A program made the translations under genes and the position numbers. Under the pieces are notes generated by a model, which worked only from the letters and a program-made list of their open reading frames with translations, had not been told where the DNA came from and did no database searches. A stretch of 63,826 nucleotides of DNA, the filler included, from Collodictyon triciliatum (Eukaryota), in the NCBI GenBank assembly GCA_043381765.1. It is 8 parts of 8 records of this genome, joined end to end, with 100 filler letters (N's around TTAATTAATTAA, not from the genome) between each part and the next. Parts side by side here need not be neighbours in the genome. Positions count along the whole stretch, not along the records: positions 1 to 13,477 come from JBHJMP010000742.1; 7 more parts are not named here. One strand, 5' to 3'. Positions 6,101 through 9,100 of this stretch are shown one piece after another; within the stretch, counting starts at the first letter, position 1, and each line of letters opens with the position of its first letter.

Positions 6101-9100
6101 TCTGCAATGTCCAAAATACTGTTCCCTTGGTGATCAGACAGGCTGATCTTTGCACCAGCTCTAAGCAGTCTCTGGTGTTCATGTCATTTTTTATTTGGTC
6201 ACTCAAAAATGGTATTTAGACATTATTATTTATCGTGGATTGAAATTATTGTAAACGTCGGTATTTTTACATTCATTCTATTAAACAATGGTTTATTTTA
6301 AATTATATAAATTATGCGAATCTATAGGAATGAATGAATGAAATGGTATCGGAAGGAATACAAAGCATGCAGTATTATGAAAGGAAATGACAAAAAAAAA
6401 TAACGAGATGAGCGAAGAAGCACACCTGCATAATATTACAAAATCCAAAGTTGGAAGCCCAATGCAGTGGTGTTCGGCCCATACTCTATAAATAATTTTG
6501 CAGTAGTCTTTTTTTAAAAAAAAATGTATATTTGCGTATCATACTGATTAATTTGGATATTCTTAAATACTTCTGTGTTTGTGGGCTATTGGGCTATGGG
6601 TTATATACTCTGTACAAAATATTGTCTATTTATTTATAAAGTATTTTCAAGATAAATATATTAAATATGTGCAACCTCAAGTGCGTTAGGCCAACATCTT
6701 CACCATCCTGCACAAAATTGAAAGGAAGAATATAAAAAAAAAAACCTCAAGTGCGTTAGGATCAGCTCCGTAACCAAGGAGAACCTTGACAACACTTTCC
6801 TCGTTATATATCGTCGCGTGATGAAGTGCTGTTGATCCATCTTCTTCCTTATCACTTACGCAAGGAGGATACTCTTTGACGGCAATAACAACCTATTTGG
6901 CGTTTAACAAATCGCTTTTAGTCATCAAATTATATACAGGAATATAATTCTGAGAATATAAATATTTAATTAAATGGGCTCATACAAGTATAACGCGCAA
7001 AAATCTGTATGTAGTGACATATTTAAATGTATTATTTGTTTTCTCACCTTGTCAAACTTCCTCCTTCCAGCCATAACTGCTATATTATATTTCGGCCGTG
7101 TATGGTAGAGTATGTATTGCAAGTTTGATTTCCTTTGTTCTGGAGGAACAACAGTGCTAGGTTATATATAAGTAAAAATATGTTAGCATGTAAGTCCCAG
7201 GTCATATCAAGTGATGGTTACTAAAGAGAGATAGGGAGGCAGGCACTGAAGGTATGGTACAACAAGATGTGATATTCATTAGGGGCGTTTTTATGCTTGG
7301 TGCCGTGCCAAGGTTAGTTTTGTTGAATTTTTCAAAACTCCATACTAAAGTATCTCTCTATCTGGAGAATATCTATCTGATTTTGATGTTGGGGATCCGA
7401 CTTGGGTCCCAGACGCTGATAAAGTGGGACTGTATGCAACAACCTCTTTTGACGTAGGTGATGGGCAAGTATCTTAATTCAGAGTAAACTTTAATAATTC
7501 TATAATATGCAGCAAACCTCGTTGACTCATGTAGGGACATTAGAAATATAAGGAATATTAACTGTAGTGAATTATTTCTTTTCTATATTGCATTATTAAT
7601 TGTGGATAACAAGATTCGACACTTTGCTTATTATAATTTCAATACTATTTCAAGTTTGTCTCTTGTGTTGAGAAAAAAACAAATTTCGTTGACACAGACC
7701 TATGACCATAGGTGGTTTGGTACTTGTACCATCTAAGTATTCAGCAATACTATGTAAATATATATATATATATATNNNNNNNNNNNNNNNNNNNNNNNNN
7801 NNNNNNNNNNNNNNNNNNNNNNNNNNNNNNNNNNNNNNNNNNNNNNNNNNNNNNNNNNNNNNNNNNNNNNNNNNNNNNNNNNNNNNNNNNNNNNNNNNNN
7901 NNNNNNNNNNNNNNNNNNNNNNNNNNNNNNNNNNNNNNNNNNNNNNNNNNNNNNNNNNNNNNNNNNNNNNNNNNNNNNNNNNNNNNNNNNNNNNNNNNNN
8001 NNNNNNNNNNNNNNNNNNNNNNNNNNNNNNNNNNNNNNNNNNNNNNNNNNNNNNNNNNNNNNNNNNNNNNNNNNNNNNNNNNNNNNNNNNNNNNNNNNNN
8101 NNNNNNNNNNNNNNNNNNNNNNNNNNNNNNNNNNNNNNNNNNNNNNNNNNNNNNNNNNNNNNNNNNNNNNNNNNNNNNNNNNNNNNNNNNNNNNNNNNNN
8201 NNNNNNNNNNNNNNNNNNNNNNNNNNNNNNNNNNNNNNNNNNNNNNNNNNNNNNNNNNNNNNNNNNNNNNNNNNNNNNNNNNNNNNNNNNNNNNNNNNNN
8301 NNNNNNNNNNNNNNNNNNNNNNNNNNNNNNNNNNNNNNNNNNNNNNNNNNNNNNNNNNNNNNNNNNNNNNNNNNNNNNNNNNNNNNNNNNNNNNNNNNNN
8401 NNNNNNNNNNNNNNNNCTGATGAAATGTCTAGTGCATACAAGATAAATCTGAATTGTATTTATAAAACGCTAAATACTTCAAAAGAGGATGAGTATGGGG
8501 TCCAAAACTGATCTTTAGATGTCTTAATAGTAGCTGATGCATAAAAAAAGGACTTTTTCGTCTCAGACATATAACTTTTTATGCCATGTAGCATATTTCT
8601 CCTATATTAGTGTTAATAGTTAGTTTTATGACAAGAATTTTTCTCTCTTTCAGTATATAGTCCCATAATGAGGATATTAAGTCTTATGAAAAATCTAGGA
8701 TAAGCAACTTTTTGTGTAATAAATCATGAATTATTTAATATGAAAGTCAATAATAGCGTAAGGAAACCATGAAGAGTTAGATTCGGGAGGATCCATCGAC
8801 TCCTCTGGGGCACCTAGGTCCTCTTCAGCTTTGTGCATGATGTGATATGAATCTATGTTCTGCTTCGCAGACTCTTCAATATCTTCAGAGAATGAGGTTC
8901 TTATGTCAAAAACATTCTGCGTTTTCGGTGCTTCTGAACTGTCTAACTTTGTTTCTGGATGCTAAAGAGGGATATATTTTGAGTTTTACAAAATTAATCG
9001 TATTAAGGTTTTTAGATTACTTTGAGTAGTTTAAACGAGTTTGAATATTGAATGGATGTAGATTTACCACAACCAGAGTCTCTTCATGGTCTGTCACTGG

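Follow-up and report, generated by a model that had tools for sequence, protein, structure and literature searches.

Retroposons of the L1 and Alu type leave a characteristic set of marks at the sites where they insert, including an A-tail, a variable 5' truncation, a target-site duplication (TSD), about 7-20 bp long, and, where the 5' end is joined, microhomology. When an Alu element lying antisense in a gene is exonised, the poly(T) read from its A-tail serves as the polypyrimidine tract before an AG within the element. In this paper, we describe an insertion, probably of the L1/Alu type, in a 63,826-nt stretch of DNA from Collodictyon triciliatum (assembly GCA_043381765.1), made up of eight parts joined by filler and hereafter called the window. 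The insert, a 52-nt sequence at positions 6691-6742 in the part taken from JBHJMP010000742.1, is a copy, severely truncated at its 5' end, of an abundant poly(A) retroposon family, and it lies antisense at an exon-intron junction of a gene encoding ankyrin and armadillo repeats. Its perfect 18-bp TSD has duplicated the end of the exon together with the core of the splice donor, so that the donor next to the exon is likely to be a rebuilt one. Unlike the familiar L1 and Alu insertions, this one is found in what appears to be a freshwater protist, and the copies of its family are unusually short. Furthermore, the T-run derived from its A-tail adjoins a donor, and the unit that it could delimit would be a 38-nt intron, in contrast to the new exon of Alu exonisation.

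Two described systems come close to this arrangement. Merle is an antisense SINEC_Cf element at the border of intron 10 and exon 11 of canine PMEL, with a 15-bp TSD that holds the original acceptor; a poly(T) tract and a cryptic acceptor lie within the element, and the result depends on the site chosen (PMC7349775). As described there, merle shares with the present site an antisense poly(A) retroposon on an exon-intron border, a splice site inside the TSD, and a T-run and an AG provided by the element. It differs in that merle concerns the acceptor side, a full-length short interspersed nuclear element (SINE) and a proven mis-splicing with a phenotype, whereas here we deal with the donor side and a 52-nt tail, known from sequence alone. 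Merle may thus be regarded as the nearest comparable case, with the present site as its mirror image at the donor. On the other hand, some families of introners take the 5' splice site from the TSD and the 3' splice site from the element (PMC9860276). The core splice site in the TSD is a feature common to both, and the 38-nt GT..AG unit at our site has the same make-up, with the use of the donor judged from the reading frame. Introners, however, make a new intron within an exon, occur in many near-identical copies, are mostly DNA-transposon-like and have TSDs of 3-9 bp; here the intron existed before the insertion, the insert accounts for 52 of its 260 nt, the TSD is 18 bp long and the element is poly(A)-tailed. 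No new intron has arisen where none existed, 190 of the 260 intron bases lying outside the insert and TSD. We found no paper describing a retroposon TSD that regenerates a donor, and no description in the literature of the retroposons or introns of Diphylleia and its relatives; in the accessible part of the preprint 10.64898/2026.06.11.730069, the words 'intron' and 'retrotransposon' occur 0 times.

Anatomy of the insert and its repeat family

Exact direct repeats of at least 16 nt with a spacing of up to 150 nt occur three times in the window. Two of them lie within a minisatellite at 62.16-62.25 kb, and the only one outside satellite sequence is an 18-nt repeat at 6673-6690 and 6743-6760, present in exactly two copies that are 100% identical (18/18) and spaced 70 nt apart; when the window was simulated 200 times with a third-order Markov model, any repeat of this kind arose in only 3 of the simulations. 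The features of the locus are as follows.

About 1342-13301, minus strand: gene encoding ankyrin and armadillo repeats.
6746-6892, minus strand: ankyrin-repeat exon of 147 nt (49 codons), from its open reading frame (ORF), tblastn with P0002, junction refinement, a contig of run X1 and the relative's ORF P0010.
6743-6760, no strand: proximal TSD copy, the final 15 nt of the exon (6760-6746) plus GTT (6745-6743), the latter now the intron start.
6734-6742, plus strand: poly(A) tail of the insert, forming an 11-A run together with 6743-6744.
6691-6733, plus strand: 3' body of the poly(A) retroposon family, 43 nt, 5'-truncated, antisense to the gene.
6673-6690, no strand: distal TSD copy, a duplicate of the final 15 nt of the exon, now intronic, plus the ancestral donor GT.
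6676-6745, minus strand: hypothetical products, either a 38-nt GT..AG unit (6745-6708) with a 32-nt cassette (6707-6676), or a 70-nt exon extension.
6486-6745, minus strand: predicted intron in its frame-keeping form, 260 nt now and 190 nt before the insertion.
6426-6485, minus strand: next exon, 60 nt, in which the ankyrin repeat goes on, from tblastn with P0002 residues 387-406.
54036-54125, minus strand: second family copy, longer than that in the gene and tailed by A7, whose 5' extension fits the consensus of the loose ends of the longer copies.

Between the two repeat copies lies the 52-nt insert (6691-6742), which closes in the A-run at 6734-6744, the last two of its 11 A's falling inside the repeat. 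Read on the gene strand, the A-tail becomes a T-run directly after the new donor. The base at 6690 (G) fits the family as well as the flank and thus constitutes a 1-nt microhomology at the 5' junction. Six inverted pairs were found, none with both arms at the ends of the insert, which therefore has no terminal inverted repeats or long terminal repeats (LTRs). The locus hence shows the marks of a poly(A) retroposon, namely an A-tail adjoining the flanking repeat and a TSD of unique sequence within the range of about 7-20 bp. The first-pass annotation had read this site as a retroposon-type insertion whose TSD holds the final 15 nt of the exon plus GTT; the TSD content was confirmed on the minus strand, and the A-tail, the perfect 18-bp TSD, the lack of inverted ends and the membership in a repeated family all agree with an insertion of that type. 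A separate repeat (6378-6404, in the next intron, against 6719-6745, in the tail of the insert, 27 nt, 74%) was considered as homology between introns and dismissed as a chance match of A-rich, low-complexity sequence.

The family was recognised both within the window and in public sequence data. The 43-nt body recurs on the minus strand (54041-54083), differing at 3 of its 43 positions, while two matches were seen in 0 of 100 shuffles, and blastn aligned the insert with this second copy over 49 bp at 93.9%. Eight public runs are on record, with shares of 0.05-0.10 each and none of them listed as RNA, and contigs of four of them, X1, X2, X3 and X5, were compared with the locus; X1 is only guessed to be RNA and three are labelled 'DNA?', and the contigs mapping from the four numbered 45, 4, 8 and 16. 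Among the contig pieces listed, 20 of 26 map solely to 6690-6744; each of the four runs contributes to these, and their flanks are unrelated. Their 3' ends fall inside the A-run, and the matches start at 6690, 6691, 6692, 6694, 6695, 6701, 6702, 6706, 6707, 6708 or 6709. Such a shared 3' end, combined with variable 5' starts and differing flanks, is the signature of a poly(A) retroposon family. Summed contig depth, which is not equal to copy number, was 329-879 over the insert in X1 (4.3 in the adjacent bin), 48-94 in X3 and 31-166 in X5, and away from the insert it stayed at single digits or low teens.

Contig copies that reach past 6690 have in common the upstream loose ends ...GCGAACCAAA, which are also present in the second copy in the window, and the longer family copies extend at least 30 nt further 5' than the copy in the gene. 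The insert is therefore one severely truncated member of an abundant family in which the 5' truncation is variable and often extreme. The annotation's 'tiny element' has to be revised in this sense, since the longer copies extend upstream. One 48-nt high-depth contig (X3 record 13) is identical to the insert over 6690-6731 (42 nt); judging from this identity, the perfect TSD and the pure A-run, the insertion looks young. No tRNA-like sequence was found in the window and no Rfam match in 53800-54400, and the 90-nt tail of the second copy has no significant fold (z = -1.39, with 19 of 200 shuffles folding equally well). A flanking repeat around the second copy, near 54100 and 54030, was dropped as a candidate TSD-like feature, the family consensus continuing through that stretch.

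The ankyrin/armadillo exon boundary and its two donors

Three sources agree that the ankyrin exon ends at 6746. The exon at 6892-6746 (49 codons) matched the 1083-aa protein P0002 with 78% identity in a protein search. P0002, by its source label a Trinity transcript of Diphylleia rotans, the closest ortholog source among those available, carries Pfam ankyrin and armadillo domains. In a tblastn comparison of P0002 with the window, residues 322-386 aligned to 6940-6746 and residues 387-406 to 6485-6426, with no gap in the protein; the pair 6746/6745 and 6486/6485 was the top junction in a GT..AG search scored against P0002, and residues 386-387 are invariant in 3 of 3 isoforms. A second relative is represented by P0010, a 93-aa ORF on a 910-nt Logan contig, which is 72% identical over 47 residues; its similarity ends exactly at ALE plus V, i.e. 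at GAG plus a GTN codon, and unrelated sequence lies beyond. This divergence right after ALE+V indicates an intron at the same position in the genome of that relative. The intron position is older than the insertion. The third source is a 587-nt contig of X1 (record 6, depth 4.3), three exon pieces of which match the window with 0, 1 and 1 differences. It skips three GT..AG introns (7699-7473, 7345-7157 and 7047-6893), covers 6746-6890 of the ankyrin exon, and has 6746 as its last base.

The same contig carries C>T differences at 7093 and 7408, each of which recurs in a single metagenome contig, from X2 (7093) and X5 (7408) respectively. They probably reflect strain variation within one organism that is present in samples from lakes or other fresh water.

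On the gene strand, the exon closes with ...CTTGAG at 6746 and is followed by the proximal donor GT at 6745-6744 (GTT plus the T-run), an AG at 6709-6708 and the distal donor GT at 6675-6674 (GTTGCA). When exons were joined by coordinate, the 6746 to 6485 join was open in all 188 codons tested. Inclusion of the 32-nt cassette leads to a stop at codon 111, a TGA with which exon 6171-6072 closes, and in the form with the 70-nt extension codon 68 is a stop, the TAA lying within the distal repeat (ORF 6686-6892). The earlier annotation had placed the exon boundary here, proposed a 38-nt mini-intron with a 32-nt cassette, and stated that only the proximal donor spliced to 6485 keeps the frame. The boundary is borne out by the P0002 alignment, the P0010 ORF and the X1 contig end, the arithmetic and minus-strand positions are correct, and the frame statement holds, both the cassette and the extension running into stops.

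The two donors were scored with a rough model built from the 12 other donors of the gene (the X1 contig supports 3 of them, and orthology the others), which gave 7.5 bits to the new donor and 5.9 bits to the old one, against a leave-one-out range of -3.6 to 7.5. At position +3, 5 of these 12 donors have T, 3 have A, 2 have C and 2 have G, and 7 of the 12 have G at +5; GTT-type donors include GTTGGA, GTTATT, GTTCCA, GTTTGT and GTTGAA. The donors of this gene are degenerate and hold little information beyond AG/GT, an unusual profile. The TSD copied donor positions -15 to +3, and with them nearly all the donor information in this gene. Judged from the reading frame, the proximal donor is likely to be used with the protein unchanged, which would amount to donor replacement. 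The 13 well-supported introns of the gene measure 71-301 nt, and a 38-nt mini-intron would be an outlier, about half the length of the shortest. The annotation's wider proposal of donor replacement, incipient exonisation or intron gain is upheld as regards the duplication of the donor and is not upheld as regards intron gain, as the intron pre-existed; neither exonisation nor intron gain finds support.

Proposed mechanism and competing explanations

We consider it likely that the RNA of a non-LTR, poly(A)-type retroposon was inserted across the exon-intron junction by target-primed reverse transcription, in antisense orientation, and that the proximal copy keeps the exon and its donor. The sense strand of the element is the plus strand of the window, hence antisense to the gene. 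In the order of events that we infer, the first nick would fall on the gene sense strand just past GAG/GTT, 3 nt into the intron, and the exposed ...GGTT end would prime on the poly(A) tail through its terminal T's. Reverse transcription would then halt after about 43 nt, giving the extreme 5' truncation, and the 5' end would be joined at the 1-nt microhomology (G at 6690). A second nick 18 nt away, 15 nt within the exon, followed by fill-in, would duplicate the exon end plus GTT; the empty site would correspond to the present sequence minus 6691-6760. As an outcome, the proximal copy would preserve the exon and provide a donor consisting of GAG/GTT and the T-run, while the ancestral donor, with a dead copy of the exon end, would be displaced 70 nt into the intron. 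With the proximal donor spliced to the old acceptor at 6486/6485, the mRNA and protein would stay the same, the intron would be 70 nt longer, and the donor would have been swapped from +4 onward.

Several points weigh against this reconstruction. L1-type endonucleases have a T-rich nick consensus, and the nick site proposed here, ...GGTT/GCAC on the gene strand, at which two T's alone can pair with the A-tail, seems to depart from it, a single site being too little to define a consensus. A Pfam scan of 15 among the 116 ORFs of at least 110 aa detected no reverse transcriptase, and the family, of which the 3' part has been recovered, may represent the tail of a long interspersed nuclear element (LINE), a SINE or the tail of an abundant mRNA. 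The donor scores derive from few sites. In the contigs of X1, X2, X3 and X5, none bridges 6600-6800, leaving the assembly without independent confirmation there; none contains the junctions 6746 to 6485, 6746 to 6707 or 6676 to 6485; and none represents the empty allele, i.e. the site without the insert. Exon 6485-6426 is likewise covered by no contig of these runs, and a scan of metagenome contigs gave 0 matches to a 30-nt string from the exon end and 0 to a core of 27 nt from the element.

The insertion may instead be harmful, if a large proportion of transcripts are spliced at the distal, ancestral donor or at the cryptic AG at 6708, so that frame-shifted mRNAs with premature stops are made and the allele is weakened or null and turning into a pseudogene. 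The two donors are identical at -6 to +3 and only 70 nt apart, the 5.9 bits of the distal one lie within the normal range of the gene, and the antisense tail offers a T-run and a CAG, the ingredients of the cryptic acceptor in the canine merle SINE (PMC7349775); moreover, the X1 contig breaks off at precisely 6746, as might be expected at a fork between two continuations, a weak hint. Against these stand the higher score of the proximal donor (7.5 bits), the length of the 38-nt unit, far under the 71-301 nt of the 13 well-supported introns, the splicing of the upstream introns in X1, and the stop-free state of all other ortholog-aligned exons, the last being weak evidence, since a very young insertion shows no decay either way. 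On balance we regard a harmful allele as unlikely. More doubtful still is the idea that, in this deep-branching protist of fresh water, very short antisense retroposon tails with long TSDs routinely build complete splice units, so that the 38-nt unit at 6745-6708 is spliced, with its GT coming from the TSD and its T-run and CAG from the tail, and the site is a case of RNA-based, introner-like donor turnover or intron gain; this we hold to be very improbable.

The origin of the inserted sequence can also be questioned. It might be a processed-pseudogene fragment, i.e. the 3' end of a cellular mRNA copied by LINE machinery and not a dedicated LINE or SINE tail, as the insert is very short and A-ended, and a second insert in the same gene (4520-4557, with AATAAA and flanked by a 12-nt repeat) suggests that the RNA tails inserted are of various kinds. 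Dozens of contigs from four runs, however, share the same tail and a common upstream extension in differing flanks, the second copy 47 kb away in the window fits a repeat family, and the insert at 6691-6742 has no standard AATAAA close to its tail; an mRNA origin therefore seems to us quite improbable. Finally, the window is a draft scaffold with 24 N-runs and no independent contig bridges the site, which might suggest an assembly artefact, or else a duplication without retroposition, by replication slippage or filler DNA at a repaired break. Yet the boundaries of the insert match, to the nucleotide, those of the repeat family and the A-tail, and the perfect 18-bp TSD consists of unique sequence; duplication of the unique flanks at both ends is not what a misjoin through a repeat would produce, nor would slippage bring in foreign sequence with a poly(A) end. 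We give such an origin hardly any credence.

Meaning of the site and other features of the window

With retroposition across the junction read as above, this single site exemplifies how a gene can survive the arrival of a retroposon on one of its splice junctions. The TSD rebuilds the exon end and the donor core, so that the gene can still be read if the proximal donor is used, and where donors carry little beyond AG/GT, the rebuilt core would be enough. The event is a single and probably near-neutral insertion of a well-known kind. It adds a further case, from a lineage that has received little study, to a known kind of event, and is clean and instructive but not surprising. In addition, the site draws attention to an abundant, uncharacterised poly(A) retroposon family with extreme 5' truncation in a host for which Diphylleia is the closest relative among the available data.

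Another tiny A-tailed insert lies on the plus strand at 4508-4566, in a different intron of the ankyrin/armadillo gene. A 12-nt direct repeat (4508-4519 and 4555-4566) surrounds 30 nt plus A8, and AATAAA stands 4 nt ahead of the A-run; simulated windows contained 0.09 such A-tailed, repeat-flanked inserts on average. This insert, too, has the look of an RNA tail that was retroposed in severely truncated form, but its source would be a different one.

The N-runs of the window include 100-N gaps and one 641-N gap. An odd pattern of 44 N, 12 letters and 44 N occurs at seven places, e.g. at 13478-13577, and several of the gaps are bordered by long pyrimidine/purine microsatellites (5362-5470, 25.7-26.4 kb, 39.3-40.0 kb, 52.6-52.9 kb and 54.2-54.45 kb). 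Pfam matches in the 15 ORFs scanned were to host genes alone, namely the TIG/REJ gene and the P5-type ATPase. The P5-type cation ATPase lies at 29613-34209 on the plus strand, split across several ORFs. On the minus strand, a 1474-codon open frame at 57969-62390 encodes six IPT/TIG domains and a REJ domain (polycystin/fibrocystin-like), and the second copy of the retroposon family lies about 3.9 kb downstream of this frame in window coordinates, on the same strand.

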